Positions 2,413 to 20,917 of a DNA stretch of 32,000 nt are shown piece by piece; the first letter of the stretch is position 1; the number at the start of each line of letters is the position of its first letter. A program made the position numbers and the translations under genes. Below the pieces are notes generated by a model, which ran no database searches, was not told the origin of the DNA, and saw nothing but the letters and a program-made list of their open reading frames with translations. The stretch is from Pyrococcus furiosus DSM 3638 (GTDB lineage: Archaea; Methanobacteriota_B; Thermococci; Thermococcales; Thermococcaceae). Location of the stretch: positions 1,568,141-1,600,140 of the forward strand of contig NC_003413.1 in assembly GCF_000007305.1 (NCBI RefSeq), written 5' to 3'.

Positions 2413-2413
2413 T

Positions 2414-4852: not shown

Positions 4853-5664
4853 TAAACGGAGAAACAAAAATTTATGGAATAATTGGCAATCCAGTAAAAC
4901 ACTCCTTGAGCCCAATAATGCACAACGCCCTATTCAAAAAATTTGGAATAAATGCCATTTACGTCCCATTCGAAGTGAAAAAAGATCTAAAGAATGCAAT
5001 AAACGGTGTTAAGGCACTTGACATTCAGGGAGTAAACGTTACAATGCCCTACAAAGAAGAAGTTATAAAATTCCTTGATGAGCTCTCCGAAGACTCTCAA
5101 AATATAGGAAGCGTAAACACTGTTGTGAACCTTGAAGGAAAGCTAGTGGGGTATACAACGGATGGAATAGGAGCCAGAAGAGCATTGGAGCGATTTACTC
5201 AGGTAGATGGGGCCAACATTTTAATTCTAGGAGCAGGAGGTGCTGGAAAAGCAATTGCATATGAACTCTCAAAAGTTGCAAATGTCGTAGTCTTAAACAG
5301 AACCATAGAGAAAGCCAAGAGGTTAGAAAAGTTTGGAATAGTGGGAGACTCCCTAGAAGCCCTCCCATATTATGTCGAGTGGGCAGATATACTGATTAAT
5401 GCAACCTCAGTTGGAATGAATGAAGAAAAAAGTCTAGTACCAAAGAATCTCCTAAGACCTGGGCTAGTTGTTATGGATATAGTCTACAAACCACTAAACA
5501 CCCTACTTCTTAGATATGCTCAGGAAAAGGGATGTATAGCTATTGATGGACTTTGGATGCTAGTCTATCAAGGAGCAGAGAGTTTTAGACTTTGGACTGG
5601 AGAGGAGGGAGACGTAGAACTTATGAGGAGGGTCGCCCTTGCGTGGCTTAGGGAAAGGAAGTAG
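4849..5664 (+). CDS. aroE: Shikimate dehydrogenase
   Basis: [61 protein letters not shown]. Confidence 0.95.
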
Positions 5665-6460
5665 TGCAATAACTGTCGTTAATGCTTTTGCAACTGGAAA
5701 AGGCGGAGCTATTGGAATAGACCTATGGACTGAGGCCAAGGTAAAGATAACAGACGGAGAAGTTAAAGGGAAAATTCTTGTAAACGGGTTAGAATTCAAC
5801 GATTTTAGAGTAGTAAATGCCGTTTTGGATGTAATGAGGAGGTATTCTGGGATAGAATTTGGAATAGAGTTCGAGATAAACTCTGAAATACCCGTAGGAA
5901 AAGGTCTAAAAAGTAGCTCTGCCGTAGCAAATGCTCTTGTAGAAGCAATAGCAAGGGCTCTTCGCTTAAATATTCCCGGAATAAAGGTCGTAAAGCTTGG
6001 AGTTGAGGCAGCGAAAAAAGCAGGGGTAACATTGACGGGAGCTTTTGACGATGCTTGTGCCTCTTATTTTGGAGGTTTGTGCCTAACAGATAATCTAAGA
6101 GTTGAACTACTTAAGAGAATTGAAATTGATGAGTTGCCAGTGGTAATTTTAGTTCCAAATGAGACAGTTCTTACAGAAGAGCTGAAAGGGGTAGATTTCC
6201 TAAAAATAGCCCCCTATGTTGAGGAAGCATTCAAGCTTGCAATTAAAGGGGAATGGAAAAAGGCACTTGTTTTAAACGGATTGATATACTCAACATTTCT
6301 AAGCTATCCTCCTGAACCCATATCCAAAGCCTTACATCTTGGAGCTGTAGTGGGGTTAAGTGGAAAAGGACCAAGTGTATTTGCAATTACAGATGAACCG
6401 GAGAGGATAGAAGAAGTTTGGAGAGAATTTGGAGATGTTATAATTACTTCAACAAGATAA
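5639..6460 (+). CDS. aroK: Archaeal shikimate kinase (GHMP kinase family)
   Basis: [62 protein letters not shown]; TTG start at 5639. Confidence 0.92.
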
Positions 6461-6509: not shown

Positions 6510-7706
6510 ATGAGAAAGGTAGGAATTACACTTTCTGTAGTTGCTCTAGTAATAATGGGATTTGTAGCAGGATGTATTGGTGGTACTCAAACCCAGGGAG
6601 AAAAAGTAAAGGTAGCAGTTCTCTTTGACGTTGGAGGGAGGGGAGATTTAAGCTTCAATGATATGGCATACTTAGGAGCAGAAAGGGCAAAGAAAGAACT
6701 TGGAGTAGAAGTTGAATACATGACTCCAAAGTCTCGTGAAGATATGGTACCTTTACTAAAGCAACTGGCTGAAAGCAAGGAATATGACCTCCTAGTTCTA
6801 ATTGGGTTCCTTTGGACTACTCCATTAGATCAAGTAGCAGATCAATATCCAGATCAAAAGTTTGCCCTCATAGACTCAACTACTGGAAAAGTTAGGGAGA
6901 ATGAAGTAGATATTCTCTTTAGAGAACAAGAAGCTGCAGCACTCATAGGCGTGATAGCCTCTGGAATGGCCTATGAACTTGGTGGCGATACCATAGGTGC
7001 TGTAGCTGGAATGGACATTCCACCACTTTGGAAATTCCACATAGGCTACCTCTATGGAGCAAAGTATTTTGAGAAGAAGACTGGGAAGCCCGTGAAGTTG
7101 CTCTGGCAGTACACTGGAACATTTACAGATACACAAGTTGGATACACTACTGGAATGCAACTGTTGCAACAGGGTGCCAAAGTTCTCTATGGCCTAGCAG
7201 GTCTAACTCACGTTGGAATGTTTGACGCAGTAATCGACTGGAATAAGCAAGGAAAGGGCAAAGCACTTGCTATTGGTCAAGACGCAAGTCAAGAGTGGTA
7301 TGCACCAGAGTATATCCCAATTAGCGGAGCTAAGAGAGTTGACGTTGCTGTTTATACGGCCATTGAAATGGTTGTCAAAAATCAATGGAAAGGAGGAATA
7401 ATGACCCTCGGTCTCAAAGAGGGAGGCGTTGGCTACTGGAATTTGGATGGAGTTAGGCAATTTGCAGAATTTGCCCAGGAGGGTGGAAAACTAAAAGACA
7501 TGACCCCAGAAGATGTTGTTAGAATAGTAAAAGAGCAGAGAGAGAAGTACATAAAGCCAGAAGTTTGGGAGATCGTGCGTGAGCTTGAGGAGAAGATAAA
7601 GAATGGAGAGATAAAGTTCAAGACACCACAGAGCCACGACGAATATGAGCAGATAATTAAGGAGTTAGAGAAAGGTAACTTAGATGCCGCCCTCGAAAAA
7701 GAGTAA
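6510..7706 (+). CDS. BMP family (Med/PnrA-like) substrate-binding lipoprotein of an ABC transporter
   Basis: Signal peptide with lipobox (FVAGCIGG); KVAVLFDVGGRGDLSFNDMAYLGAERA; followed by a matching ATPase and two permeases. Confidence 0.88.
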   Translation: MRKVGITLSVVALVIMGFVAGCIGGTQTQGEKVKVAVLFDVGGRGDLSFNDMAYLGAERAKKELGVEVEYMTPKSREDMVPLLKQLAESKEYDLLVLIGFLWTTPLDQVADQYPDQKFALIDSTTGKVRENEVDILFREQEAAALIGVIASGMAYELGGDTIGAVAGMDIPPLWKFHIGYLYGAKYFEKKTGKPVKLLWQYTGTFTDTQVGYTTGMQLLQQGAKVLYGLAGLTHVGMFDAVIDWNKQGKGKALAIGQDASQEWYAPEYIPISGAKRVDVAVYTAIEMVVKNQWKGGIMTLGLKEGGVGYWNLDGVRQFAEFAQEGGKLKDMTPEDVVRIVKEQREKYIKPEVWEIVRELEEKIKNGEIKFKTPQSHDEYEQIIKELEKGNLDAALEKE

Positions 7707-7750
7707 CTTTTTATTACCCCTTTCTCTTCTTTTTTCAGGTGTGCCAAGTT

Positions 7751-9256
7751 ATGAATGCAATTGAGATGGAGAATATAGTAAAGGTTTATCCAGATGGAGT
7801 TGTAGCCCTCAAGGGAGTCGACTTTAAAGTAGAAGCTGGGGAAATTCATGGTCTTCTTGGCGAGAACGGAGCTGGAAAAACAACGCTAATGAGGATCCTC
7901 TATGGGGAGATAAAGCCAACAAAGGGAAAAATAAGAGTTTTTGGAAAAGAAGTAAAATTTTCTGGGCCCTGGGACGCAATAAGATCAGGTATAGGAATGG
8001 TTTACCAGCACTTTACATTGGTCCCAACTTTTACTGTTCTTGAAAACCTTTACCTTGCCTTACTTCCATTAAATCCAAAAATTACCCTAAAAGAAGTCAA
8101 AAAACTTGCAAAAGAAAAGATGAAAGAAACTGGGCTCAAAATCCCCCTTGATGAAATAGTAGAGGATCTTCCTATTGGAATTCAGCAGAGAGTTGAGATA
8201 ACTAAGGCACTCATGCAAAATGCTAAGATTTTGATACTAGATGAGCCAACATCAGTATTAACTCCAATTGAAGTTAGAGAACTCTTCAAGACACTTAGAA
8301 AGCTCAAAGAAAAGGGAATTACAATAGTGTTCATTACCCACAAACTGAAGGAGGTAAAGGAGATAACTGATAGAGTCACCGTAATGCGAAGGGGAGAGGT
8401 AATTGGAACAGTGAAGACGAGTGAAGTTTCGGAAAAGGAGCTAGCAAAAATGATGGTGCAAAGGGACGTTGTAATGAAAATTGAGAAAATGCCCAAGGAG
8501 CCAGGAAAAACAGTGCTTAAGGTAGAGAATCTTTGGGTAAAGGACGATAGAGGATTAGATGCAGTAAAGGGAATATCACTAGAGATAAGGGAAGGAGAAA
8601 TACTCGGAATTGCAGGAGTTCAAGGAAATGGACAGAGAGAATTGGCTGAGACACTTGCAGGAGTTAGAAAACCAGAAAAAGGTAAAATTATCTTTGATAA
8701 AAAAGATATTACAAAAACAGGAGCACTTGAAAGATATAAGATGGGAATTGCATACGTTCCCGATTCCAGAAAAGTAGGATTAGTGGAAGAGATGAACATA
8801 GTAGAAAACACCATTCTCACAAATTTATTTGAAGTAGTTAAATCCGGAAGAATTTCTTGGGACAAGGGAAGAAAAATGGCAAAAGATATTGTAGAGAGGT
8901 TTGAAGTCATTACTCCATCCTTAGCTGCCAAAGTAAAACACTTGAGTGGAGGGAACCAACAAAAAATAATGGTTGGAAGAGAGATAATCAGAGAACCAAA
9001 GGTCTTCATAGTTGCAGAGCCAACTCAAGGGTTGGATATAGGAGCAACGGAATTCATAAGAAAAACATTACTGAATCTTAGAGATCAAGGAAAGGGAATT
9101 CTCCTAATTTCAACAGATCTAGATGAGATTCTTCAATTAAGTGATAGAATTGCCGTGATATATGAGGGTCAAATTATGGCAGTTGGAAAACCTGAAGAGT
9201 TCACCCTTGAGAAGCTAGGACTGCTAATGGGTGGTGTGCATGCTGAAAGTGAATGA
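7751..9256 (+). CDS. ABC transporter ATP-binding protein with two fused ATPase domains (nucleoside/BMP type)
   Basis: GLLGENGAGKTTLMRIL, VYQHFTLVPTFTVLENL, ILILDEPTSVLTP; second domain LSGGNQQKIMVGREI..VAEPTQGLD. ORF opens at 7739 but ATG 7751 is more likely. Confidence 0.92.
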   Translation: MNAIEMENIVKVYPDGVVALKGVDFKVEAGEIHGLLGENGAGKTTLMRILYGEIKPTKGKIRVFGKEVKFSGPWDAIRSGIGMVYQHFTLVPTFTVLENLYLALLPLNPKITLKEVKKLAKEKMKETGLKIPLDEIVEDLPIGIQQRVEITKALMQNAKILILDEPTSVLTPIEVRELFKTLRKLKEKGITIVFITHKLKEVKEITDRVTVMRRGEVIGTVKTSEVSEKELAKMMVQRDVVMKIEKMPKEPGKTVLKVENLWVKDDRGLDAVKGISLEIREGEILGIAGVQGNGQRELAETLAGVRKPEKGKIIFDKKDITKTGALERYKMGIAYVPDSRKVGLVEEMNIVENTILTNLFEVVKSGRISWDKGRKMAKDIVERFEVITPSLAAKVKHLSGGNQQKIMVGREIIREPKVFIVAEPTQGLDIGATEFIRKTLLNLRDQGKGILLISTDLDEILQLSDRIAVIYEGQIMAVGKPEEFTLEKLGLLMGGVHAESE

Positions 9257-10229
9257 GAAAACACTCGAAGTTATATCTTCGCTAATATTTGCATTCTTAA
9301 TAGGGGCAATTGTCTTAACATTGTTGGGATATAACCCGGCTAAAGTTTACATCATACTATTTAAATACGGGTACGGAAATCTTGAGTATCTCCTTAATAA
9401 AAGCACACCACTTATATTGACAGGACTTGCATTCTCAATACCAGCTCTTGCAGGTGTTTTTAACATAGGGGGAGAAAGCCAACTTTATGTAGGTGCACTT
9501 ACAGCCCTTCTAGTTGCTTATTATACAAGAAATCCTATTTTAGCCCTAATCCTCGGAGGAATAGCAGGAGGTGCCTTAGGACTTTTCATCGGAGCACTTA
9601 GAGTTTACAGAGGCATTAATGAAGTGATAACGGCAATAATGATAAACTGGACAATGTTCTACATTCTAGCGTACCTCATATCAGCCAAATACCACGATCC
9701 AAAAAATCCTCATGAATCCGTTCCAGTCCCATCTGAAGCAAGAATAGGGGGAATTTTCATAATTGCAGTTCTTATTGCTATTCTCTACTATTACCTCCTT
9801 AATTTTACGGAACTTGGGTACAAGTTGAGGGTGTCAGGATTGTCACCTAAATCTGCAAGGTATGCAGGGTTCAATCCCTCCAAGCTAATTCTCTCTTCAA
9901 TGCTATTGGGTGGTCTAGCTGCGGGCCTTGGAGGGGCCCTCTTAGTCCTGGGAATAACATATGCTATTGATGACACTCTCTCCACAGTATATGGAGTTGG
10001 ATTTACGGGAATAGGAATAGGGCTCTTGGGAAGGAACAATCCAATAGGAATAATATTCTCGGGAATATTTATGAGCGGACTGATAATTGGAGGGCAATGG
10101 GTTGAGTTAAAAACAGGAGCCCCACCAGAGCTTGCAGATACGCTAGTAGGTGTAATAGTGATAACCCTTGCAGTTCCCCAGCTGTATAGAGAAATTTTCA
10201 AGAGAATTAGGAGGGAGAAGCATGCTTGA
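9240..10229 (+). CDS. ABC transporter permease, BMP/nucleoside type (YufP-like)
   Basis: Hydrophobic protein with KSTPLILTGLAFSIPALAGVFNIGGESQLYVGA; ATG at 9240 chosen within the 9231 ORF. Confidence 0.87.
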   Translation: MLKVNEKTLEVISSLIFAFLIGAIVLTLLGYNPAKVYIILFKYGYGNLEYLLNKSTPLILTGLAFSIPALAGVFNIGGESQLYVGALTALLVAYYTRNPILALILGGIAGGALGLFIGALRVYRGINEVITAIMINWTMFYILAYLISAKYHDPKNPHESVPVPSEARIGGIFIIAVLIAILYYYLLNFTELGYKLRVSGLSPKSARYAGFNPSKLILSSMLLGGLAAGLGGALLVLGITYAIDDTLSTVYGVGFTGIGIGLLGRNNPIGIIFSGIFMSGLIIGGQWVELKTGAPPELADTLVGVIVITLAVPQLYREIFKRIRREKHA

Positions 10230-11130
10230 AGATGTATTTGTGCTTCTCTCAAACACATTATTTTCAATGGTCCCATTGGTTCTTGCTGGGGTTGGAGAAG
10301 TAATAACAGAGCGCTCTGGAGTGGTTAACATCGGGCTAGAGGGGATATTCATTCTCTCTGCCTTCCTCACAACTGTAGTTACGTTTTACACAGAAAATCC
10401 CTATCTGGGCCTCATAATTGGAATATTAGTTGGAGCACTCTCCGGACTTCTCCACGGGATAATCAGCGTATACTTGAAAGGTGATCAAATAATTGCAGGA
10501 GTTGGTTTTAATTCTCTAGCCTATGGAATAAGCATACTTTCACTTGTAGCCCTATGGCACAGTCACGGCTCCTCTCCTTCTGTAGAAAAGATGCCCGTAA
10601 TTATTATCGGCCACCTTACAATTCCCCCAATGGCAATAGTGGCAATATTAGTTGGAGTAATTACATGGTGGTGGCTATATAAAACTCCAAGCGGTTTAAA
10701 ACTGAGAGCTTGTGGAGAGGATCCAAGAGCTGCTGAGGCTATGGGGGTTAACGTTCACAGAACTAGGCTATATGCAACGATGGTGGGGGGAGCTTTAACT
10801 GGGCTCGGAGGTGCGTATTTAGTTGTGGGATGGATAGGGCAGTTTACAAAGTTTATATCGGCAGGAAGAGGATTCATAGCCCTAGCAAATGTAGCTTTCA
10901 GCAATTGGAATCCACTGATGGCAGTGGTGGGGGGAATTATATTTGGATTCTTTGACGCACTGTCAATATACGTACCAATAAAGATCCAGAAAACCACTGG
11001 AAGAATAATAACCGCAGAATCAAATCTCTTTAGGATAATCCCATATATAGGAACATTATTAGTGGTCACAATAATCATGAAAAAAGTTAAAGCTCCCAGG
11101 GCTCTTGGGAAACCTTATATCAAGGAGTAA
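10222..11130 (+). CDS. ABC transporter permease, BMP/nucleoside type (YufQ-like)
   Basis: TLFSMVPLVLAGVGEVITERSGVVNIGLEGIF, GDQIIAGVGFNSLAYGIS; GGGAGAAG SD before ATG 10222 (ORF opens at 10168). Confidence 0.87.
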   Translation: MLEDVFVLLSNTLFSMVPLVLAGVGEVITERSGVVNIGLEGIFILSAFLTTVVTFYTENPYLGLIIGILVGALSGLLHGIISVYLKGDQIIAGVGFNSLAYGISILSLVALWHSHGSSPSVEKMPVIIIGHLTIPPMAIVAILVGVITWWWLYKTPSGLKLRACGEDPRAAEAMGVNVHRTRLYATMVGGALTGLGGAYLVVGWIGQFTKFISAGRGFIALANVAFSNWNPLMAVVGGIIFGFFDALSIYVPIKIQKTTGRIITAESNLFRIIPYIGTLLVVTIIMKKVKAPRALGKPYIKE

Positions 11131-11206
11131 CTTTCTTTCCCTTTTTAAATTCTGGCCAGCTCCACTAATCCAAAAAACAATAAATTCATTGGAAGTAGCA
11201 TTCCAC

Positions 11207-12427
11207 ATGCTTAGAATTGTTCCACCAAAAGAAATTCAAGGTGAAGTAATAGCCCCGCCCTCAAAGAGCTACACCCATAGGGGTTATTTTTTGTCCCTCC
11301 TTGCAGATGAAAAAAGTATAGTAGAGAGACCCCTAATTAGTGATGATACCCTTGCAACCATAGATGCAATTAGAGCTTTTGGTGCTGATCTCATAGAAGA
11401 GGTGGTCTATCCTCCCGAAGAATTAAGGCCAAACTATATATTTGCCCGAGATTCTGGAACAACAGCAAGGATTTCAATAATAGTTTCTTCCCTAGCTAAG
11501 GGTGTTAGTGTAATAGATGGTAGGGAACAGCTCCGTAGGAGACCAATGGAAGATGGAGTATCTTCTTTGAGAATGATTGGTGTAGAAGCAATTGGAAAGA
11601 GACTTCCAGTGAAAGTCTTTGGGAGGGGAAGAATTAGTGCCAAAGAAGTCTCCATAGTGGCCGAAAAGTCCTCTCAATTTGCAACAGGCTTTCTAATACT
11701 AGCAGCGAAGATCGGATTGAAAGTCGAAATAGTGAAACCAGTCTCAAAGCCTTATATTGAGATGACACTAAAAACCATGGAAGAGTTTGGCGTTAAATAC
11801 GATAAAGCTCAAGAAAATGAGAGACTAGTAATTTTTGTTGACCCAGGAGTTAAGGGGACAAAATTTAAGGTTCCAGGGGATTATTCCTCAGCGGCAAACT
11901 TCTTAGTTGCCGGTGCACTCTACGGCAAGATAAGGGTCAGAAACTTGATGAGGGATGACGTTCAAGCAGACAAAGAAATCCTCAACATATTGAGGGAATA
12001 TGGAGCAAAAGTTAAGGTAAAAGATGAGTATGTAGAAGTTGAAAGCAACGAAAGAAATCCATTAAATGTAGATTGCTCAAACTTTCCTGATTTATTTCCC
12101 CTCCTAGCTGTTCTTGCGGCATATGCCGAAGGAAAAAGTGTGATACGAGGGAGACAGTTGAGGATTAAAGAAAGTGACAGAATCCATGCAATGGCGGTAA
12201 ATCTTTCAAGAGCTGGAATTAGAGTTAGGGAGCTTAGTGATGGACTTGAAATCTGGGGTGGCCAACCTAAGGGATTTAGGGGGAAAACATTCAATGATCA
12301 TAGGATTACAATGGCTTTAGCAATCCTCGCCCTGGGGGCTAAGGGCGAGAGTATAATTCCTGAAACTAAAAGTATTGCAAAGTCCTATCCAAACTTTTTC
12401 GAGGATTTAATGAGGGTGATAAAATGA
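11207..12427 (+). CDS. aroA: 3-phosphoshikimate 1-carboxyvinyltransferase (EPSP synthase)
   Basis: PPKEIQGEVIAPPSKSYTHRGYFLSLLADEKS, ARDSGTTARISII, DYSSAANFLVAGAL, FNDHRITMALAILAL; ATG 11207 fits the family N-terminus. Confidence 0.93.
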   Translation: MLRIVPPKEIQGEVIAPPSKSYTHRGYFLSLLADEKSIVERPLISDDTLATIDAIRAFGADLIEEVVYPPEELRPNYIFARDSGTTARISIIVSSLAKGVSVIDGREQLRRRPMEDGVSSLRMIGVEAIGKRLPVKVFGRGRISAKEVSIVAEKSSQFATGFLILAAKIGLKVEIVKPVSKPYIEMTLKTMEEFGVKYDKAQENERLVIFVDPGVKGTKFKVPGDYSSAANFLVAGALYGKIRVRNLMRDDVQADKEILNILREYGAKVKVKDEYVEVESNERNPLNVDCSNFPDLFPLLAVLAAYAEGKSVIRGRQLRIKESDRIHAMAVNLSRAGIRVRELSDGLEIWGGQPKGFRGKTFNDHRITMALAILALGAKGESIIPETKSIAKSYPNFFEDLMRVIK

Positions 12428-13511
12428 ATGGGAAAATGTTGTCATTTCACTTATTTGGAGAGAGTCATGGGAAAGCCGTAGGAGAGTTCTAATAGAAGGA
12501 GTGCCTCCTGGGATAAGAGTTAACCTGGAGGAGTTAAAAGCCGAACTTGAAAGAAGAAAGGGGATTTCCAAATTTTCAACTGCCAGAAAAGAGAGCGACG
12601 AACCTATAATAATTTCCGGAGTTTTTAGAGGATACACTACTGGAGCTCCAATAACAGTAATTGTGGAAAATAAAGACGTAGATTCTTCATATTATGAGGA
12701 GATCAAAGATACTCCTCGACCTGGGCATGCAGATTATCCAGCAAAGATCAAGTATTTTGGCTTCAATGACTATCGAGGAGGAGGAAGGTTTTCTGGAAGG
12801 CTAACTATAGGCTTTGTAATCGCCGGATATTTCGCCAAGAAGATTCTCGAACCAGTGGGAGTAAAAATTAAAGCCTATATAAAGAGAGTTGGAAAAGTGG
12901 AAGCTAGAAACATGAGCATCGAGGAAATATTCAATTCTCCGAACCCTTACTGCCCAGATGAAGATGCATTTAAAGAGATGCTTAAGGAGATGGAAAGTGC
13001 AAAAAAGTCTGGAGACAGCGTTGGTGGAGTGGTAGAGGTTGTTGCAATAAACGTTCCCCCAGGATTAGGTGGACCTTATGAGGATGATATAGAAGCTGAT
13101 CTTGCCTCAACATTTTTCAGAATTCCAGCTGTAAAGGGTGTTGAGTTTGGACTTGGATTTAAGGTTAGTGAAAAGAGAGGTAGTGAAGTAAACGACCCTT
13201 ATGTCATAAAGAACGGAGAAATACAGACGGTAACAAACAATCATGGAGGCATTATAGGAGGAATAACAACAGGAATGCCAATAGTAGCTAGAATAGCGTT
13301 CAAACCAACTCCCTCAATATACCTTCCCCAAAAAACCGTAAATTTAAGAGAAATGAAGGAAACAACTATAAAGCTAAAGGGGAGATTTGACTCCTGCATA
13401 GTTCCTAAAGCTCTTCCCGTGGTTGAAGGTGCAATGGCCTTTGTGCTTGCAGATCACTTTCTTAGGAGGTTAGCCTGGGAAAGATATGTCCACCTATCCA
13501 AAGAATTTTAA
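12424..13511 (+). CDS. aroC: Chorismate synthase, frameshifted near 12481-12486 in this sequence
   Basis: N-terminal MNGKMLSFHLFGESHGKAVG (12424-12483) is followed in another frame by VLIEGVPPGIRVNLEELKAELERRKG... to 13511. ATGA overlap with the aroA stop. Confidence 0.88.
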
Positions 13512-13517
13512 ATAAAA
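13505..13517 (+). promoter_or_regulatory. Putative internal TATA box for the chorismate mutase-aminotransferase-tyrA unit
   Basis: AT-rich ATTTTAAATAAAA spans the aroC stop, about 30 nt upstream of the MPRQY leader ORF. Confidence 0.4.
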
Positions 13518-13536
13518 GGACAACCAAAAAGTGGGG

Positions 13537-13569
13537 ATGGTGATGCCACGCCAATATCAACGAATTTAG
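13537..13569 (+). CDS. Candidate leader peptide MVMPRQYQRI* (Tyr)
   Basis: ATG GTG ATG CCA CGC CAA TAT CAA CGA ATT TAG; shares ggtgatgcc-cgccaatatcaa with the 5' leader of the aro cluster and ends 8 nt before the chorismate mutase ATG. Confidence 0.45.
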   Translation: MVMPRQYQRI

Positions 13570-13577
13570 ATGAACAA

Positions 13578-13808
13578 ATGACAACATTAAAACTCCTTAG
13601 AAAGGAGATAGATAAAATAGACAACCAAATAATATCTCTTCTAAAAAAGAGACTTGAAATAGCCCAAGCAATTGGGAAAATAAAGAAAGAGCTCAATCTC
13701 CCCATAGAAGATAGAAAAAGAGAAGAAGAAGTTCTAAGAAGAGCTGGCGAGTTTAGGGAAATTTTTGAAAAGATTTTGGAGGTTAGCAAAGATGTTCAAC
13801 GTTTATGA
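13578..13808 (+). CDS. Chorismate mutase (AroQ type)
   Basis: LLRKEIDKIDNQIISLLKKRLEIAQAIGKIKKELNLPIEDRKREEEVLRRAG is the classical AroQ motif pattern. Confidence 0.92.
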   Translation: MTTLKLLRKEIDKIDNQIISLLKKRLEIAQAIGKIKKELNLPIEDRKREEEVLRRAGEFREIFEKILEVSKDVQRL

Positions 13809-14829
13809 GCTATTTAATAAGATAAATGAGGTAAAACCAGAGATTCGACTTGATGCAGGACAACCAGATATCCCCGTAGCTAACGAAATAATAGAAGAAG
13901 CCATAAATTCTCTAAAAAGGGGAGAAACTGGCTATGTAAGTACAACTGGAATTAACGAGTTGAGAGAAAAGATAGCAGAAGTAGAAGGAGTGAGCAAAGA
14001 AGAGGTAATTGTTGGGCCTGGAGCCAAAATATTGATAGCTGCAGAGATAGCAATGGCCAACAAGATTGGAGTAATTGCCCCCTACTGGAATGCCTACCTA
14101 TTGATAGCCAAGAACTTTGAAAAAGAAGTTAAAATAATTGAGACAACATTAGAAAACTCCTGGGAGCCTGAAATTAACGACAACTTAGATGTTGACCTCC
14201 TAATTCTCAACTACCCCAATAACCCTACTGGAAAAATACTCCCAAGAGAAAAACTCAAAGAACTCGTAGAAGTTGCAGAAGAGAAAGGAATCAAAATTCT
14301 TTCCGATGAAATCTATGCTGAAATTTCTTTTAAGTCATTTACTCCTGTTCGAGAGCTCTATGAAAACACGGTCACCGTAAAGGGGTTCTCCAAACTGTAT
14401 TCAATGACTGGCTTTAGGCTTGGATACGCTATTGCCGATAAGGAAGAGATAAGGAAAATAAAAACATTCATTGAATCAACTGTCACCTGTGTTCCTCCTT
14501 TCGTTCAAAGGGCTGGGATCAAGGCTTTGGAGCTTAGAGATGAGTTAATGAAAAAAGTGAGTAGGGAGTATAAGAGAAGAGCAGAACTTGCCTCCAAAAT
14601 CTTGAGGGGATTAGAGTTCTATGAACCCGATGGAGCATTCTACATATTCCTCAAAACACCCATTGATGGGTTGGAATTTGTCTATAAACTACTCGAGAGG
14701 GGAGTTTCAGCATTCCCAGGAATAGCGTTTGGAAATTATCAAAACTTCATAAGGATCTCACTAACGAGTGATAAGCTCGAGAAGGGATTAAACATAATCA
14801 AGGAGGTAGCAGAATGCGAATCACAATAA
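13792..14829 (+). CDS. PLP-dependent class I/II aminotransferase, probably aromatic/prephenate-linked
   Basis: DAGQPDIPV, GPGAKILIAAEIAM, LLILNYPNNPTGKI, SDEIYAEISF, VKGFSKLYSMTGFRLGY; ATG 13792 within the 13765 ORF. Confidence 0.87.
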   Translation: MFNVYELFNKINEVKPEIRLDAGQPDIPVANEIIEEAINSLKRGETGYVSTTGINELREKIAEVEGVSKEEVIVGPGAKILIAAEIAMANKIGVIAPYWNAYLLIAKNFEKEVKIIETTLENSWEPEINDNLDVDLLILNYPNNPTGKILPREKLKELVEVAEEKGIKILSDEIYAEISFKSFTPVRELYENTVTVKGFSKLYSMTGFRLGYAIADKEEIRKIKTFIESTVTCVPPFVQRAGIKALELRDELMKKVSREYKRRAELASKILRGLEFYEPDGAFYIFLKTPIDGLEFVYKLLERGVSAFPGIAFGNYQNFIRISLTSDKLEKGLNIIKEVAECESQ

Positions 14830-15588
14830 GTGGATATGGTAAAATGGGAAAACTCTTTGGAAGAGTTCTTTCTGAGGAATTAAACTCAGAAGTGAAATTT
14901 TACTCTAGCCATACAATACTAGATTTTTCCACCCTTAGTGAAGCCTATGAATGGAGTGATGTTATGATACTCGCCTCCACAATAGATAACATAAAAGCTC
15001 AGATTAGGGAGTTAAGAGAGATATCATTGAGTAATCCAAAAGATATTATGATTTTTGACATAGCAACGTTCAAAAAAGACGTACTTACCGAGTACCAAGG
15101 ATTTCCCAGGGAGGTAAAAGTAGCAAGCGTCCACCCAATGTTCGGCCCAGGAGCTAAGAGTTTTAGGGGGCATTTATTTTATCGTTGTCCCTGTAAAGGG
15201 CAGGGAAAAAGACGCCGAAGATGTCGGAAAGTTTATCGAAGGATTGGGGGGAAAAGTTGAATTTATGAGTGTGGAGGAGCATGATAGAATAGTTGGATTC
15301 GTTATTGGAGTGCCCTATCTATTGGGCATTGCATATCTTAAACTATCACTTGAAAACAATCTAGAAAGATTTGGGGGGACCTCTTTTAGATTTCTAACAA
15401 TTTATGGAAAGGCAGTGCTAAATGATGGTCCAAGGTTTATAGAAGAAGTCATTAGAAGATCTAGAGAAGAGATAGCAGAATTCCTAAAGAGTATAGATTC
15501 TGTAAATGTGCATGAACTATCTAAAAAAGTCTCAAGAGAAGAGATAGAGAGGGCATATGAAAAGTTTTACAAAATTTTAGATCCCTAA
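14814..15588 (+). CDS. tyrA: Prephenate dehydrogenase, frameshifted around 15165-15180 in this sequence
   Basis: ISGYGKMGKLFGRVL...ASVHPMFGPGAKSFRG in frame 1; FIVVPVKGREKDAEDVGKFIEGLGGKVEFMSVEEHDRIVGFVIGVPY... continues in another frame to 15588. Confidence 0.88.
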
Positions 15589-16329
15589 AAGTTCCTCTAC
15601 TTTCTTCTTTAAGAATTCTGTGGCCTCTCTTCCCTTTTCTCCTATTATTTTTACCAAAGCGCTTCCCACAACAACTCCATTCGCACCTTCTTTAAGTAAA
15701 CTCACAACGTGCTCCCTTTTAGACACCCCGAATCCCACAGCAACCTTGTTTCTGCATATCCTTTTAGCTCTTCTGAGCAAATCATAAGCAGTTTTGGGTA
15801 TTTCCTCCCTAGCTCCTGTTGTTCCATATAGGGAGACTAGATAGACAAACCCAGTCGTCATGTCATCAATAACCTTGAGCCTTTCATCTGGAGTATTGGG
15901 AGCCGCCAAAAATACTGTCTTAATGCCTTCTTCTCTAGCAATCTCTGTAAACTCTTTAGCATGAAAAACTGGAAGGTCCACAACTAGAATTCCATCGACA
16001 CCACTAGCCTTTGCCTCTGCTAGAAAATTCCTAACCCCTGCTCTGTATATTGGATTGTAGTAAGTCATCAGGACTATTGGTGTACTGGAATGCCTTCTGA
16101 ATTCCTTAACAATCCAGAAGGCCTCTCTCAACTTAAATCCATTTTTTAGTGCCCTGTAGTGCGACTCTTGAATTGTCTTACCATCAGCTATTGGATCACT
16201 AAATGGAATTCCCAGCTCTATTGCCCCAGCATACTCATCAAGAGCTAGGAGAAAATTGAGAGTAGACTGCTTATCAGGGTCCCCCGCTGTTAAATATGGA
16301 ATTAGAGAACCATCCTTAAACATTTCCAC
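15577..16329 (-). CDS. trpA: Tryptophan synthase alpha chain
   Basis: [63 protein letters not shown]. Confidence 0.95.
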
Positions 16330-17482
16330 TCACCTTCAAGACTATATCAAGATCCTTGTCTCCCCTTCCAGATAGGTTTACTATAATTATCTCGTCTCTA
16401 CTCATTTCTTTTGCAAGCTTCATAGCATAAGCTACTGCATGTGCTGATTCAAGAGCAGGAATTATACCTTCAGTTCTTGAAAGTTCGTGAAACGCTTTCA
16501 ACGCCTCTTCGTCAGTTACAGTAACGTATTCAGCCCTTTGGATTTTCTTAAGATATGCATGTTCAGGCCCCACTCCTGGGTAATCGAGGCCAGGAGCAAT
16601 GCTGTGTGTAGGCTTTATCTGTCCCTCCTCATCCTGTAAGAAGTAGCTAAGCATTCCATGGAATACTCCAACTTGACCAGCATTCAGAGATGCCGAGTGT
16701 TTCCCACTTTCCAAACCCTTACCCCCAGCCTCAACTCCCACAAGTTTAACCTTCTTATCATTTACAAACGGGTAAAATATCCCCATTGCATTGCTTCCTC
16801 CTCCAACACAGGCCACTATTACATCAGGCAACTGCCCTTCAGCCTCAAGAATTTGGGCCTTAGCTTCCCTTCCTATTACGGACTGAAAGTCTCTAACTAT
16901 TGTTGGATATGGATGGGGCCCAACCACGGAACCTATTAAGTAGTGAGTGTATTCAAACGTGGCCACCCAATCCCTTAGGGCTTCATTTATTGCATCCTTT
17001 AATGTCCTAGAACCAGAATTTACTGGAATAACATTTGCCCCCAATAGTTTCATTCTGAATACATTCATTTTTTGTCTTTCAACGTCCTCAGCTCCCATGT
17101 ATATATCAACCTTCATGCCAAGTAAAGCTCCAGCCATTGCCGTTGCAACACCATGCTGACCAGCTCCGGTCTCAGCTATTAGCCTAGTTTTACCCATAAA
17201 CTTCGCTAACAAAGCTTGCCCTATTGCATTGTTCGTCTTGTGGGCTCCTCCGTGAACTAGATCTTCTCTCTTTAGATATATTTTTGCCCCACCTATCTTT
17301 TCAGTTAGTCTTTTGGCATAATATAGAGGAGTTGGTCTGCCAGCCCAGGTTTTAAGATAATAATTCAACTGCCTGTTAAACTCCTCATCGTCTTTAAACC
17401 TTTTATATGCCTTTTCTAATTCTTTTAATGGTTCTATTAGAGTCTCAGGCACATATTGACCTCCAAACTCACCAAACCACAT
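16316..17482 (-). CDS. trpB: Tryptophan synthase beta chain
   Basis: [74 protein letters not shown]. Confidence 0.97.
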
Positions 17483-18095
17483 TTTTGGCCCTCCTTACAA
17501 ACTCTTCAACTAACTTGGGATCTTTTATTCCATATTTCTCAACTCCAGAAGAGACATCAACACCATAAGGCTTCACAACTTTAATGACTTCCTCAACGTT
17601 TTCAGCATTTAAGCCTCCAGCTACTATAACTGGAATTTTTCTTGCGACTAGAGAAGAAACCCTTAAGTCATGAAGCTTCCCACTCCCCGCTCCTGTATCA
17701 AGTAGTACCATATCAGCGTTGTACCTAGATATTTCTGAGAGAAGCCTGTTGGCATCTTCTTCAGGATTCTTGGAGATAGTTGGAACCCTAAACGCTTTCA
17801 TAACAAAAACCCCGAACTCTTTTTTCAATGTGTCAATTGTTTGAGGCAAAGCATTAGAGTGAACCTGAATGTATTGAGCTCCAGTTCTCTCGATTGCCAT
17901 GGCCCATTCAGAAAATCCAACCATAGTAGAAACTAGAAACACTGGAATAGCAGAGTTTTCTATTATTTCCCTAGCTTTTTCAAGCGGTATTCTCCTCTTA
18001 GAGTTTGAATTGACCACAACTCCTGTAGCATCTGCATGCTTTTCTACGATTTCAAGCTCTTCGAGACTTTTTATTCCGCATATTTTTACGAACAT
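17469..18095 (-). CDS. trpF: Phosphoribosylanthranilate isomerase
   Basis: [65 protein letters not shown]. Confidence 0.94.
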
Positions 18096-18661
18096 TATCT
18101 TGTCATCTCCACGAAGTTTTGTATAATCCTTAATCCGTCCTCTCTCTTTGTCAAAACGCTCTCTGGGTGAAATTGGACTCCTTCTATTGGGAGAGTCTTA
18201 TGCCTAATGCCCATGATTACTCCATCATCCAGAGAAACTGATGTAACTTTGAACCCTTTTGGGGGCTCTAAAACTGCCAAAGAGTGATATCTTCCGGCTA
18301 AAAATGGATTATCGAGTCCTCTATAGACACCCTTGCCATCATGTCTAATAAGGCTAGCTTTCCCATGTTTTGGAGTTACCCTTCCAATCTTCCCCCCAAA
18401 AACAGCTCCGATTATTTGGTGGCCCAGACAAACTCCCAAGAGGGGAACCTCTGATTCCAAAACTATTTCTGGTGAATTGCCGACTTCTCTTCTATCAAGT
18501 GGATGACCTGGGCCCGGTGAGATTATTATACCATCGGGATCCAGCTTTTTAACTTCACTAAGGGTTATCTTGTTAGAAACTACTACTGCTTCATCAAAGA
18601 ATGATACGTATTCAGCGAGATTCCAGACAAAAGAATCTCTATTGTTGATTATTAGAATCAT
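18095..18661 (-). CDS. trpG: Anthranilate synthase component II (glutamine amidotransferase)
   Basis: IIINNRDSFVWNLAEY, ISPGPGHP, LLGVCLGHQIIG, GVQFHPESVLT; start at MILIINNRD within the ORF opening at 18676. Confidence 0.94.
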   Translation of the reverse strand: MILIINNRDSFVWNLAEYVSFFDEAVVVSNKITLSEVKKLDPDGIIISPGPGHPLDRREVGNSPEIVLESEVPLLGVCLGHQIIGAVFGGKIGRVTPKHGKASLIRHDGKGVYRGLDNPFLAGRYHSLAVLEPPKGFKVTSVSLDDGVIMGIRHKTLPIEGVQFHPESVLTKREDGLRIIQNFVEMTR

Positions 18662-18662
18662 G

Positions 18663-19961
18663 CTACTCCACCCCAAAGGCTTTTAGAACAGCCCTCATCT
18701 TGTTTTCAGTTTCATAAAACTCCTTTTCTGGAATTGAATCTGCAACTATACCTGCTCCCGCTCTAATGTGAGCGTGCTTATCTATTTCCGCCATTCTTAT
18801 CGCTATGGCAAAATCTGCATAGCCTGTTACGGAAAAATATCCAACAGCTCCTCCATAAACTCTTCTCCTGCTTTTTTCCAGTTCATCTATAATTTCCATT
18901 GCCCTAATTTTTGGAGCTCCTGTCAATGTTCCAGCTGGGAAAGTTGCCTCAATTGCATCAAACATGTCTTTATCCTCGGCCAACTCCCCAATTATCTCAC
19001 TTTCAATGTGCTGGACATAGCTATACTTGACCACATCAAAGTACCTCACTACCTTAACACTCCTGGGTTTCGAAACTCTCCTAACGTCATTTCTAGCTAA
19101 ATCCACTAGCATTACATGCTCCGCTCTTTCTTTCTCATCAGAGAGTAGGGCTTTTTCAAGTGCCTTGTCTTCTTCCTCGTTCTTTCCCCTTGGAATAGTT
19201 CCGGCAATTGGGTTTATCTTAACAATTTTTCCTTCAACAGAGCCCATTGTTTCAGGAGACGCTCCCACCACTACTTTTTCAAATTCAAGGAGAAAAGTAT
19301 AAGGCGATGGATTAATGTCTAGCAATCTAAGGTAGATTGTAAAAGGATCTAAGTCCGTCTCAACTACGTACTCTCTCGAAAGGACTACTTGAAATACGTC
19401 TCCTGAAAATATGTACTCTTTTCCTTTTTCTACAATTTCAACAAACTCTTCTTTATTTGCATCAGTTTTTAAAATTGAACTTCCTCCATCCTCTCTGGGA
19501 ATTTTTGCCCTTTTGGCCTTTTCCACTATAGCTTCTGGATCAAATGGCGGTTCTTCTAGGGAAACAAAGTAGAGTTTATTTTCTAAATGATCATAAATGT
19601 ATGTCCATGGATAATAGCCAAAAACTGAAGGCTCCTCAACATTCCCCTCTATGTAGTTGTGAACGGCATCATAAGCTATATATCCAACCAAGCCGCCCAT
19701 GAATCTTTCTCCACTTATTGAGTGCTTTATAAAGCCCTTTAACCCCTTAAATGGATTTCTTTCTTTTGATACCTTTTTTCCATCTAAATAAGTTCCTCTC
19801 TCATTTATACTCACAATGAATTCAGGTGCTGCTGAGAGGTAAGTGAATCTGGCCTTTTTGCTATGCTTTTCTGCTGACATTAGGATAAAAGGATACTCAA
19901 GTTGTCTGAGAATAAGGTATAAGCGAAGAGGAGACACTCGATCTAACTCTTTGATAAGCAT
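18663..19961 (-). CDS. trpE: Anthranilate synthase component I
   Basis: YIFSGDVFQVVLSREY, GSVEGKIVKINPIAGTIPRG, VDLARNDVRRVS, ATFPAGTLTGAPKIRAMEIIDELE, IRAGAGIVADSIPEKEFYET. Confidence 0.96.
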   Translation of the reverse strand: MLIKELDRVSPLRLYLILRQLEYPFILMSAEKHSKKARFTYLSAAPEFIVSINERGTYLDGKKVSKERNPFKGLKGFIKHSISGERFMGGLVGYIAYDAVHNYIEGNVEEPSVFGYYPWTYIYDHLENKLYFVSLEEPPFDPEAIVEKAKRAKIPREDGGSSILKTDANKEEFVEIVEKGKEYIFSGDVFQVVLSREYVVETDLDPFTIYLRLLDINPSPYTFLLEFEKVVVGASPETMGSVEGKIVKINPIAGTIPRGKNEEEDKALEKALLSDEKERAEHVMLVDLARNDVRRVSKPRSVKVVRYFDVVKYSYVQHIESEIIGELAEDKDMFDAIEATFPAGTLTGAPKIRAMEIIDELEKSRRRVYGGAVGYFSVTGYADFAIAIRMAEIDKHAHIRAGAGIVADSIPEKEFYETENKMRAVLKAFGVE

Positions 19962-20917
19962 GCAATCTCCTCCAATTTCTTTATTATTTTTTCTCCTAGA
20001 ACATTCTCAGCCAGTTCTACTCCTTCTTTCAAATCAGAGGCGATCCCTATTGTATAAAGTGCCATAGCCGAATTTATTAAGACAAAATTCCTGTCTTCAT
20101 TTTTTCCATTTCCACGCAAAACAGCTCTAATTCTCTCTGCACTTTCTTCTGGAGAATAGCAGGGGATAACTTTAGTTCTAGCCAATCCGAAGTCTTCAGG
20201 AGTAACAGTGTAAAAATCTATGTCACCTCTATTGACTTCGGCAACTATAGTTTCTTTCTCTGGACTAATCTCATCCAATCCGCTACCATGAACAACTGTA
20301 GCTCTTTTAACACCGAGGTAATTTAGAGCTCTTGCCATCTTCTCTACTAGGTCTCTAGAATTAACTCCTACAACTTGATAAGCTGGATTTGCTGGATTTG
20401 CTAGCGGTCCCAAAATGTTGAAAATGGTCTTTATTCCCAATTCTTTCCTTACGGGCATTATTCTCTTTAGGGCTGGATGATACATTGGAGCAAATATAAA
20501 TGTGAAGTTAACTTTTTCAATCATCTCTTTAGCCTTCTCTGGAGAAATCTTGATGTTTATTCCCAGGGCCTCTAGAAGATTTGCAGAACCACTTCTTGAA
20601 GTTACGGAGACATTGCCATGCTTAGCTACCTTTGTATATTCTGAAAGAATAAGGGCTGATGCAGTGCTTACATTTATCGTGAATGATTTATCTCCTCCAG
20701 TACCAGCAGTGTCTAGAACCTCCCCAAGATCCAACTTAATTGCATTGTCTCTCATTGCCTTTGCAAATCCCGCTATTTCCTCTGAAGTATACCCTTTAGT
20801 TTGGAGAGCCGCGAGATATGCTGCAATCCTAACTTCGCTTTCTTCCTTGAGGATGTTAAATAAGTCGTAAGCCTCCTCGAAGGATAAATGCCTATTTTCT
20901 ACTATCTTCTCCAGCAT
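19943..20917 (-). CDS. trpD: Anthranilate phosphoribosyltransferase
   Basis: DTAGTGGDKSFTINVSTASALI, AKHGNVSVTSRSGSANLLEALG, FIFAPMYHPALKRIMPVRKELGIKTIFNILGPLANPA. Confidence 0.96.
   Translation of the reverse strand: MLEKIVENRHLSFEEAYDLFNILKEESEVRIAAYLAALQTKGYTSEEIAGFAKAMRDNAIKLDLGEVLDTAGTGGDKSFTINVSTASALILSEYTKVAKHGNVSVTSRSGSANLLEALGINIKISPEKAKEMIEKVNFTFIFAPMYHPALKRIMPVRKELGIKTIFNILGPLANPANPAYQVVGVNSRDLVEKMARALNYLGVKRATVVHGSGLDEISPEKETIVAEVNRGDIDFYTVTPEDFGLARTKVIPCYSPEESAERIRAVLRGNGKNEDRNFVLINSAMALYTIGIASDLKEGVELAENVLGEKIIKKLEEIACLSKS

Follow-up and report, generated by a model that had tools for sequence, protein, structure and literature searches.

INTRODUCTION

In the leader-peptide attenuators of bacteria (trpL, pheL of pheA, hisL), a very short open reading frame (ORF) follows the promoter and precedes the first gene of a biosynthetic operon. 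The ORF contains codons for the end product, the ribosome that translates it senses charged tRNA, and separate leaders serve a common pathway and its branches. Here, we describe a 32,000-nucleotide stretch of the genome of the archaeon Pyrococcus furiosus DSM 3638 (the window; positions are counted from its first letter), in which a short ORF, MVMPRQYQRI, occupies positions 13537 to 13569 of the plus strand ahead of the gene for chorismate mutase (CM), the first gene of the tyr-phe transcription unit. The arrangement is similar: the ORF stands between a promoter and a first biosynthetic gene, it has a codon for an end product, Tyr, and the translating ribosome is the proposed sensor of charged tRNA. 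This branch leader, with its Tyr codon, also has a counterpart with Phe, Trp, and Tyr codons in front of the common aro pathway. The bacterial leaders differ in that they contain runs of regulatory codons, whereas here each unit has a single one, in an archaeal host, and in that they operate through a terminator and an antiterminator, whereas here there is neither, nor a nearby U tract. In addition, the leader described here overlaps or adjoins the first gene in another frame, is built from a repeated module with a Shine-Dalgarno (SD)-like sequence, and probably has a translational output.

Other systems share some of these features. In the ermC leader, tnaC, the fungal arginine attenuator peptide, and the GCN4 upstream ORFs (uORFs), ribosome occupancy of a short 5′ ORF controls the downstream cistron with no sensor protein of its own, as we propose here; those systems respond to a drug, to a free amino acid, or to eIF2 status, and several of them require particular nascent peptides, whereas the conserved feature here is a codon and its nucleotide context. 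T-box riboswitches provide a codon-specific read-out of tRNA charging upstream of amino acid genes, as proposed for this leader, but they span approximately 200 nt as opposed to approximately 20 nt, and the element described here matches no Rfam family, has no antiterminator, and would need the ribosome. The +1 frameshift of prfB and the −1 frameshift of dnaX in Escherichia coli have an SD-like sequence upstream of the shift site, like the shift site proposed below. As in these systems and in hungry-codon frameshifting, the rate of A-site decoding would be tied to a limiting factor, and a 0-frame stop follows soon after. Unlike prfB and dnaX, the element described here has no slippery heptamer at its −1 sites and no downstream pseudoknot or hairpin. 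We know of no natural frameshift site for which regulation by amino acid supply has been shown.

In Thermococcus kodakarensis, the activator Tar (TK0271) controls the same three promoters, aro, tyr-phe, and trp (Yamamoto et al. 2019, PMC6737238), and the ORF at 532 to 846 of the window is the Tar orthologue. In vitro, Tar does not respond to Trp, Tyr, or Phe, none of which releases it, and how a shortage of any single aromatic amino acid is sensed was left open; the words leader and attenuation do not occur in that paper (PMC6737238). We found no description of an archaeal aromatic leader peptide or uORF in the literature outside subscription journals, and a family of leaders with aromatic codons is apparently undescribed in archaea. 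According to the T. kodakarensis transcriptome paper, no attenuator or riboswitch had direct in vivo support in Archaea.

RESULTS

A conserved leader ORF with a single Tyr codon precedes chorismate mutase

Direct translation of positions 13537 to 13569 gives ATG GTG ATG CCA CGC CAA TAT CAA CGA ATT TAG, i.e., MVMPRQYQRI, or MPRQYQRI from the ATG at 13543, with the Tyr codon at 13555 to 13557 and the stop codon at 13567 to 13569. Within it lies a repeat unit, GGTG ATG CCA CGC CAA TAT (13539 to 13557, plus strand), in which an SD-like GGTGAT overlaps the ATG and which ends with the Tyr codon. When up to two mismatches are allowed, the unit GGTGATGCCNCGCCAAT occurs four times in the 32 kb, at 487, 517, 535, and 13539, always on the plus strand; shuffling predicts 0.01 copies, and none of 100 shuffled sequences reached four. 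The initial annotation of this DNA had reported a match of 20 of 22 nt to the third repeat of a leader in front of the aro genes, and comparison of 13539 to 13560 with 535 to 556 reproduced this figure exactly. It had also placed the leader before CM, an aminotransferase, and tyrA, which proved correct, tyrA (prephenate dehydrogenase) being split in this genome.

We collected orthologous regions through one genome scan with chorismate synthase, which found seven Thermococcales loci, and for the most part through protein look-ups. The small ORF before CM is kept in three Pyrococcus and four Thermococcus genomes, and its Tyr codon is UAU in all seven, so that the conservation on which the initial annotation had made its proposal depend holds for both the ORF and the codon. 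Besides MVMPRQYQRI of P. furiosus, the leaders read VMPRQYT in Pyrococcus ST04 (L152), VMPRQYL in Pyrococcus kukulkanii (L153), VTVMSRQYRVLIL in Thermococcus L154 (MSRQYRVLIL from the inner Met), VMVMQRQYP in Thermococcus L157, VMVMSHQYWIQ in Thermococcus stetteri (L158), and VMVMSCQY in Thermococcus L159, each followed by a stop codon; that of Thermococcus gammatolerans (L155) is degenerate (MVMFR, stop). We aligned the eight promoters in front of these leaders, hereafter P2, the aro promoter being P1. Within the intergenic region, conservation is highest in the block GGTGAY-GGTGATG-NNN-YRC-CAA-TAT, where it exceeds that of the TATA box, and the sequence past TAT has fully diverged.

The same regularity holds for the units as a whole. 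Across 15 genomes, 23 leaders contain 37 units, and with a search pattern that left the last codon unfixed, the codon after CAA was aromatic in every one of them (Phe in 8, Trp in 11, and Tyr in 18). The triplet behind the aromatic codon varies freely, and the linkers between units (12, 15, 18, and 18 nt) have lengths divisible by 3. The probability of such an excess of aromatic codons by chance is below 1e-3 even if only the approximately seven clearly separate lineages are counted. The codons themselves are uncommon: in Thermococcus, TAT accounts for 14% of Tyr codons, CAA for 12% of Gln codons, and CGC for 8% of Arg codons (1.6% in Pyrococcus), and the units use all three without exception. 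The base ahead of CAA is always C in the 37 units, and the “Arg” codon varies only as YRC. A scan of metagenome contigs with GGTGATGCCNNNCCAAT gave 120 single chance matches, none of them with Tar, CM, or related genes. Judging from these features, the ORF at P2 is probably a real, conserved leader read by ribosomes through its aromatic codon.

Strong nucleotide conservation that includes synonymous sites could also denote a nucleic acid recognition element, such as the operator of a repressor or a GGUG/YRCC hairpin bound by a tRNA or by a protein, for instance the ACT-domain protein encoded nearby, in which case the ORF would be incidental. The restriction of the “Arg” codon to YRC would preserve pairing with GGUG, the element lies at or after the transcription start site (TSS), and an ACT-domain gene adjoins the trp operon (21760 to 22440). 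Operators at or after the TSS are typical of archaeal repressors. Nevertheless, a recognition element would explain neither why an aromatic codon always follows CAA while the next triplet is free, nor why the units invariably share a single frame free of stop codons, nor why Phe, Tyr, and Trp codons are retained in the rearranged leader of Pyrococcus abyssi (see below). Moreover, the units, spaced 30 and 18 bp apart, are out of helical phase, the hairpin has only 4 to 5 bp and is not retained in a distant metagenome-assembled genome (MAG; L008), no Rfam family matches, and Tar binds elsewhere, upstream of the B recognition element (BRE). We regard this explanation as highly improbable.

Rfam gave no hit at the gathering threshold in the whole window and none at an E value of ≤1 in 13450 to 13700, and folding of the P2 5′ region relative to shuffled sequences gave z-scores of −0.4 and −1.3, i.e., no significant structure. 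No hairpin/U-tract terminator follows the P2 leader on the plus strand; the first T5 run is located 225 nt downstream, inside CM, with none within 200 nt of the leader. We thus rejected a classical attenuator, given the absence of structure, of a nearby U tract, and of an Rfam match. A T-box-like or other tRNA-binding RNA was rejected as well, as the element is too small and its 4- to 5-bp stem is not retained in L008. The absence of a terminator argues that the output of the leader is translational and is exerted on the overlapping CM frame.

The leader is predicted to form the 5′ end of the mRNA

A BRE, AAAGA (13500 to 13504), and a TATA box, TTTTAAAT (13506 to 13513), precede the leader on the plus strand and fit the P. 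furiosus promoter consensus, with the BRE at −36 to −32 and WTTTAAAW at −30 to −23 (PMC6640164). They predict transcription to start at 13533 to 13536, 23 nt past the last TATA base, which would place the leader ORF at the extreme 5′ end of the mRNA. The predicted start corresponds to 1581673 to 1581676 of NC_003413 and to 1565005 to 1565008 of CP023154. Upstream of the BRE/TATA, a Tar-box-like imperfect palindrome, AAGATA-N8-TATCCA, can be read directly at 13481 to 13500. The Tar box consensus is TGGACA-N8-TGTCCA, also located upstream of the BRE/TATA (PMC6737238); the P. furiosus palindrome matches it at 8 of 12 positions and aligns with the TGGNCA-N8-TGTCCA boxes of seven orthologous promoters. 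The orthologous boxes are closer to the consensus (ST04, TGGACATGTGATCCTGGCCA, 11 of 12; Thermococcus, TGGCTAGGTGAACCTGTCCA), and Tar may bind P2 of P. furiosus as well.

A promoter upstream of 13537, presupposed by the initial annotation, is thus apparent, and the T. kodakarensis data point to the same place. Differential RNA sequencing (dRNA-seq) identified primary TSSs at 227747 for TK0271, 58 nt before its ATG, and at 219368 for TK0261 (CM), 43 nt past the end of the chorismate synthase gene (TK0262) and 111 nt upstream of the annotated CM ATG (PMC4247193). Tar-dependent in vitro transcription of the tyr-phe unit has been demonstrated for that organism only; the run-off transcripts of 286 nt for aro (template reaching 230 bp past the TK0271 ATG) and 360 nt for tyr-phe (template reaching 251 bp past the TK0261 ATG) correspond to starts 56 and 109 nt upstream of the respective ATGs (PMC6737238), in agreement with the dRNA-seq distances. 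We transferred the T. kodakarensis starts to a closely related proxy locus, L154, whose CM shares 91% identity and in which the chorismate synthase end and the annotated CM ATG lie equally far apart to within 1 nt. Both transferred starts fell on the first G of GGTGAY-(C)GGTG-ATG, 10 to 11 nt before the leader AUG, which makes the leader the 5′-most feature of the mRNA.

The predicted mRNA of P. furiosus has an SD-like GGGGAT at its 5′ terminus (13533 to 13538, plus strand), 4 nt before the ATG at 13543. In the orthologous Thermococcus leaders, GGTGAY is found 4 to 5 nt ahead of the leader AUG, and the spacing over all leader AUGs is 4 to 6 nt; for comparison, 67 of the 77 genes in the Thermococcales loci retrieved here have an aligned SD spacing of 3 to 5 nt.

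An extreme 5′ position would also suit an effect on the transcript itself. A ribosome stalled at UAU, within approximately 25 nt of the 5′ end, might shield the mRNA from 5′-to-3′ decay or maintain the coupling of RNA polymerase to translation, so countering premature (FttA-type) termination, and thereby raise the expression of the whole operon. Such a mechanism has the correct sign, operates with any position of the aromatic codon, and agrees both with the invariably 5′-terminal location of the leaders and with the increase of transcript levels upon starvation in T. kodakarensis. Ribosomes stalled on the ermC leader are known to stabilize mRNA, and polarity is established in T. kodakarensis. 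However, the constant −1 frame, the CM genes devoid of a start codon (see below), and the invariant C-CAA would have no explanation, and the stalled ribosome would block the first cistron. We therefore consider it rather unlikely.

The parent leader in front of tar-aro contains three units

The first three copies of the unit (487, 517, and 535) belong to one ORF in front of tar and the aro genes, VMPRQFTQQKVMPRQWVMPCQYQ (488 to 559, plus strand), which reads (V)MPRQFTQQKVMPRQWVMPCQYQ followed by a stop, i.e., MPRQF..MPRQW.MPCQY, with a different aromatic codon in each unit. The Trp unit supplies the Tar ATG (532) at its CAA|TGG junction, and this ATG lies −1 relative to the leader frame. In seven genomes, the three-unit leader has Phe, Trp, and Tyr codons exactly once each, in the order F-W-Y in P. 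furiosus, Thermococcus chitonophagus, and four Thermococcus genomes and in the order F-Y-W in L008, whose Tar is only 45% identical. Other P1 leaders have W-W-Y (T. stetteri), ..Y-W (T. gammatolerans), or Y only (L001, L004, and L005). The leader of P. abyssi, MRGEFKVMPYQWKILE, is rearranged: two units are lost, and one TTC, one TAC, and one TGG codon are kept. More distant P1 leaders read MLFCQY.. in a Baldrarchaeum MAG and MRCQFQY.. in another contig.

P1 and P2 resemble each other beyond the unit. The aro promoter consists of a Tar box, TGGATA-N8-TGCCCA (424 to 443), and a TATA box, ATTTAAAT (447 to 454), on the plus strand, with a predicted TSS at 475 to 477, and its BRE/TATA sequence, AAGAATTTAAAT (444 to 454), is closely similar to that of P2. 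The two promoters share AAGAATTT(T)AAAT and, past an unrelated spacer, GG(G)GATGGTGAT. P2 in P. furiosus might be a functionless by-product of a duplication that brought the aro promoter, the final unit of its leader, and the 5′ end of tar in front of CM. The resemblance in promoter, unit, and following bases (ST04, ATAGATAAGGGTGAAGG; P1, ATAGATAACGGCGGGG) speaks for this reading, as do the Thermococcus MAGs without P2, in which CM overlaps chorismate synthase (L001 to L006 and L009), and the split tyrA of P. furiosus DSM 3638. Against lack of function, the unit and its Tyr codon are kept in seven Pyrococcus and Thermococcus genomes whose flanking sequences have fully diverged, and the lineage that lost the Tyr codon has also exchanged ATA for ATG in the CM frame, which looks like the compensated loss of a functional element. 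A mere by-product is thus the least probable of the alternatives. In our preferred explanation, the ORF at P2 is the genuine leader of the Tar-activated tyr-phe transcription unit of Thermococcales and derives as a single unit from the modular tar-aro leader.

A GC-rich hairpin is found at P1 (540 to 573, plus strand), formed by unit 3 (UGCCCUGCC) and GGCGGGGUA, with its arm GGCGGGG in the 5′ coding region of tar. Eight genomes retain this hairpin, its covariation being weak, and P2 lacks a counterpart. Units 1 and 2 could also pair with the G-rich arm GGCGGGG. Separately, in the distant contig L160 (3230 to 3340 and 4768 to 5856), a Tar homologue that is 51% identical and lies outside any aro operon is preceded by MVIRMRCQFQYRIV.. 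(CAA TTC CAA TAT); a gene for a class Ib aminoacyl-tRNA synthetase (TyrRS/TrpRS family) is found approximately 1.2 kb away.

Probable dependence of chorismate mutase genes on the unit

The CM frame is −1 relative to the leader and is open from 13512 through the unit. This relation is constant: for each of the 23 leaders, Tar or CM follows as the first gene in the −1 frame, which stays open through the units. In the CM frame, the triplet ATA at 13554 to 13556 (plus strand) shares 2 nt with the Tyr codon and is a candidate landing codon after a frameshift or a candidate non-AUG start. The GGTGAT of the unit lies 9 nt from this ATA and likewise from the Tar ATG, beyond the usual 3 to 5 nt, so that Tar and CM lack a properly placed SD sequence. 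The notion that the unit merely provides an SD sequence and a start codon for Tar or CM is weakened by this 9-nt spacing and leaves the aromatic codons unexplained.

In three Thermococcus genomes (L154, L157, and L159), there is no ATG, GTG, or TTG in the CM frame between the TSS and helix 1, which carries the LRxxIDxID motif. The Pfam CM_2 match starts 12 to 15 codons past ATA, and the annotated TK0261 (58 aa) starts at profile position 20. As wild-type T. kodakarensis grows without Tyr or Phe, the full enzyme must be made. T. stetteri has a TTG directly after ATA. The lack of a canonical start after the TSS is reflected in the mis-annotation of Thermococcus CMs, which have been given a GTG or ATG start inside their own promoter or have been truncated to 58 to 66 aa without helix 1 (e.g., L154, 18333 to 18665); in entries of the former type, MNLSKRLNP.. 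is the translation of the Tar box and TATA box.

The three Pyrococcus genomes differ in having a CM ATG of their own, 35 nt past the leader ATG. In P. furiosus, 8 nt (ATGAACAA) separate the leader stop TAG from this ATG (13578), which has no SD match (best run, 3 nt), as the initial annotation had stated. A three-codon mini-ORF, ATG AAC AAA TGA (13570 to 13581, plus strand), adjoins the leader stop (TAG-ATG) and overlaps the CM start (ATGA); it occurs in P. furiosus only and is absent from ST04 and P. kukulkanii. In the latter two genomes, the gap between leader stop and CM ATG is 14 nt, with an SD-like GGGTGA before the ATG in ST04 and a weaker GGAG-type match in P. kukulkanii.

These arrangements bear on a simpler possibility, in which the leader is translated and CM is made by ordinary initiation or re-initiation at a nearby start, the leader delivering ribosomes or occluding the start. 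The route would be the TAG-ATG..ATGA chain in P. furiosus and the ATA, TTG, or ATG inside the unit elsewhere. Several observations agree with it: TAG|ATG AAC AAA TGA overlaps the SD-less ATG at 13578, T. gammatolerans has an ATG exactly at the ATA position of the other genomes with the stop of its dead leader overlapping it (TAATG), the TTG of T. stetteri is right behind ATA, and all leaders stop 0 to 5 codons past the Tyr codon. The sign, however, is wrong for a biosynthetic operon. A ribosome stalled at UAU covers the overlapping start, and occlusion and stop/start coupling therefore both predict less CM under Tyr starvation. The invariant aromatic codon, CAA, the preceding C, and the rare codons would remain without explanation, neither the 8-nt gap nor the mini-ORF is conserved, and the SD sequence of the unit is 9 nt from ATA or ATG rather than 3 to 5 nt. 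This reading, which corresponds to the coupling model of the initial annotation, is unlikely in our estimation, though less so than the other alternatives.

The coupling of CM to leader translation put forward in the initial annotation therefore stands in part. CM is tied to the leader region, as evidenced by the three Thermococcus CM genes without a canonical start, but the 8-nt gap and missing SD sequence from which the coupling had been deduced are peculiar to P. furiosus, and simple stop/start coupling would lower CM upon Tyr starvation. Branch-specific control, the other part of that proposal, cannot be the whole story, since the lack of any of Trp, Tyr, or Phe raises the transcripts of all three operons in T. 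kodakarensis; a Tyr-specific translational layer may exist.

A proposed Tyr-tRNA sensor with a possible −1 frameshift

We propose that the leader is a ribosome-based sensor of Tyr-tRNA with a translational output, possibly effected by a −1 shift at the hungry codon; we give this reading a probability of roughly 45%. The leader ORF would be the first thing that the ribosome meets, and loading would be through the SD-like GG(G/T)GAY at the 5′ terminus, which is canonically spaced. UAU, the only aromatic codon of the leader, is read by wobble, is rare in Thermococcus, and would act as the sensor. When charged tRNA-Tyr is scarce, the ribosome would wait with CAA in the P site and UAU in the empty A site and would slip by −1, from C-CAA to CCA. 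The slip would be favored by the GGUGAU of the unit, 7 nt upstream of the P-site codon, a spacing longer than the 3- to 5-nt optimum. At dnaX, the internal SD-like sequence that promotes the −1 frameshift is also spaced further than the optimum. After the slip, the A-site codon would be AUA (AUU or AUG elsewhere), and the ribosome would continue into CM. With plentiful Tyr, it would finish the leader and terminate a few codons later.

A −1 frameshift is the mechanism that we favor for the output, although it is less likely than not, and it would account for several of the constraints at once. C-CAA to CCA re-pairs positions 1 and 3, the best possible outcome for a Gln codon, which would explain the invariant C and the rare CAA, and a −1 shift would also explain the CM genes without a start codon and the constant frame relation. 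It makes specific predictions as to the junction peptides, namely, QISTNLDEQMTTLK for P. furiosus CM, QISSPDLVELAILR for CM of the T. kodakarensis type and ...PRQMGDALPISIDNGGVDVLR for Tar; for TrpC (see below), the junction peptide of a shift would be MGGDFGLSR. Initiation at ATA would instead give a CM of the T. kodakarensis type with the N terminus MSSPDLVELAILR.

A number of observations weigh against the sensor-and-shift proposal. The P2 sequence CGC CAA UAU does not conform to an X XXY YYZ slippery heptamer, re-pairing of C-CAA to CCA involves a central mismatch and concerns the P site only, and folding gave no downstream stimulatory structure. The ATG/TAATG arrangement of T. gammatolerans indicates that this position can be an ordinary coupled start, and the ATA of the others could by extension be a weak non-AUG start. 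The CM ATG present in Pyrococcus implies that a frameshift is not needed in the genome from which the window comes; the P. furiosus leader could act through the mini-ORF chain, or not at all, in a strain whose tyrA is split. Recombinant Tar made from its annotated ATG is active, and in T. kodakarensis the lack of any single amino acid among the three aromatic ones raises the transcripts of all three operons. The genomes are related, and the counts of conserved units overstate their independence, with approximately seven clearly separate lineages. The leader positions in T. kodakarensis are those of the proxy L154 rather than of its own sequence. Finally, leader translation, pausing, shifting, and the regulatory sign are all proposed, put together from sequence patterns.

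A parallel at the trp operon

The trp operon, the third member of the Tar regulon, also begins with a short ORF, MGGDFWTEQGY (21572 to 21607, minus strand), which overlaps the start of trpC (GTG at 21603) in another frame and contains UUU-UGG. In six of six genomes (the window, L153, L157, L158, L159, and L008), the 5′ end of the operon has such an ORF with a start served by an SD sequence and with NNU-UUU-UGG, further examples being MTGDGFWPEQSY and MSGDGFWPEQSH. If tRNA-Phe slipped by +1 along the U run while UGG was hungry, the ribosome would enter exactly the trpC frame. Upstream of this site, the SD-like GGUGAU is 0 to 3 nt away, as opposed to 7 nt at the −1 units. A short SD-like spacing is characteristic of the +1 frameshift of prfB (RF2). 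The peptide GDGFW is also a shifted reading of the conserved TrpC N terminus, which limits its value as independent evidence; the independent part consists of the upstream start and two synonymous T's, which are fixed in six of six genomes.

Extended to the regulon, the model would have all three aromatic operons of Thermococcales gated by “frameshift attenuators,” in which a ribosome halted at a hungry aromatic codon shifts into the first gene: by −1 at C-CAA-UUU, C-CAA-UGG, and C-CAA-UAU for tar, by −1 at C-CAA-UAU for CM, and by +1 at UUU-UGG for trpC. The spacing of the internal SD-like GGUGAU would set the direction of the shift. Given that Tar activates its own gene, a frameshift-dependent rise of Tar would induce the three operons together whenever a single aromatic amino acid ran short, and the Tyr-only and Trp-only leaders would contribute specificity for their branches at the level of translation. 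We hold this generalization to be tentative and, on balance, unlikely.

A block of related appearance, GGTG(A/G)TG-N3-ATTAAG, is found at the 5′ ends of operons of the lysine (AAA) pathway in three genomes, 15 to 25 nt before the homocitrate synthase start (L154, approximately 270 to 315; L028, approximately 1010 to 1056; L156, approximately 1270 to 1314). It reads ..I-K.. in one frame and may be an analogous Lys-codon element, though its ORF is not short.

Gene content of the window

The CM of the window is 100% identical to that of P. furiosus DSM 3638, and window positions plus 1,568,140 give the coordinates of the original assembly NC_003413, with which the gene positions agree. We derived the gene layout from matches to Pfam and NCBIfam profiles. 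The TK0271-family activator Tar (PF1687; 532 to 846, plus strand), for which NCBIfam TK0271_fam covers residues 16 to 103 only, is followed by transketolase, DAHP synthase, DHQ synthase, DHQ dehydratase, shikimate dehydrogenase, and shikimate kinase (830 to 6460), an inserted ABC transporter (6510 to 11130), EPSP synthase (11105 to 12427), and chorismate synthase (12501 to 13511). On the plus strand of the tyr-phe unit, CM of the AroQ/CM_2 type (PF1701, 76 aa; 13578 to 13808) is followed by the aminotransferase PF1702 (13792 to 14829), which has its own SD sequence, GGAGGT, and by prephenate dehydrogenase as two ORFs split by a frameshift (14814 to 15260 and 15244 to 15588). The trp operon (15577 to 21603, minus strand) is convergent.

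The frameshift in prephenate dehydrogenase (PF1703/PF1704) lies around 15200 to 15250, close to a G6/A4 run; the protein is undivided, with 259 to 263 aa, in ST04 and P. kukulkanii. Chorismate synthase has a late GTG start at 12501, which leaves a gap behind EPSP synthase (12427 to 12501). The re-sequencing paper of 2019 reports a difference of 2 nt (ga) at 1580622 to 1580623 of the old numbering, corresponding to 12482 to 12483 in the window. This difference restores a longer N terminus of chorismate synthase, which indicates that the window carries a frameshift of the old assembly.

The ABC transporter comprises four genes (a Bmp/PnrA-type binding protein, an ATPase, and two permeases) and interrupts the aro operon behind shikimate kinase and ahead of EPSP synthase. 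P. abyssi, ST04, P. kukulkanii, and T. chitonophagus have this transporter as well, and it is absent from the examined Thermococcus loci; ST04 and P. kukulkanii have three extra minus-strand genes at this site. Divergent from the trp operon, the gene for the ACT-domain protein PF1712 (ACT_7 + DUF7523; 21760 to 22440) is also found in Thermococcus L157, and its product could be an amino-acid-binding partner within the aromatic regulon.

DISCUSSION

An annotation problem is exposed by these loci: the CMs of Thermococcus are truncated, as in TK0261 with 58 aa, or start inside the promoter. Beyond annotation, a leader that places one codon each for Phe, Trp, and Tyr across the start of tar, an autoregulated gene, is a candidate answer to the question raised by the work on Tar as to how the lack of any single aromatic amino acid is perceived. 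If the frameshift reading is true, these leaders would represent a natural regulatory use of hungry-codon frameshifting, which would be categorically new. If confirmed, the sensor would be the first archaeal case of ribosome-mediated amino acid sensing, and one that works without the terminator hairpin of bacteria.

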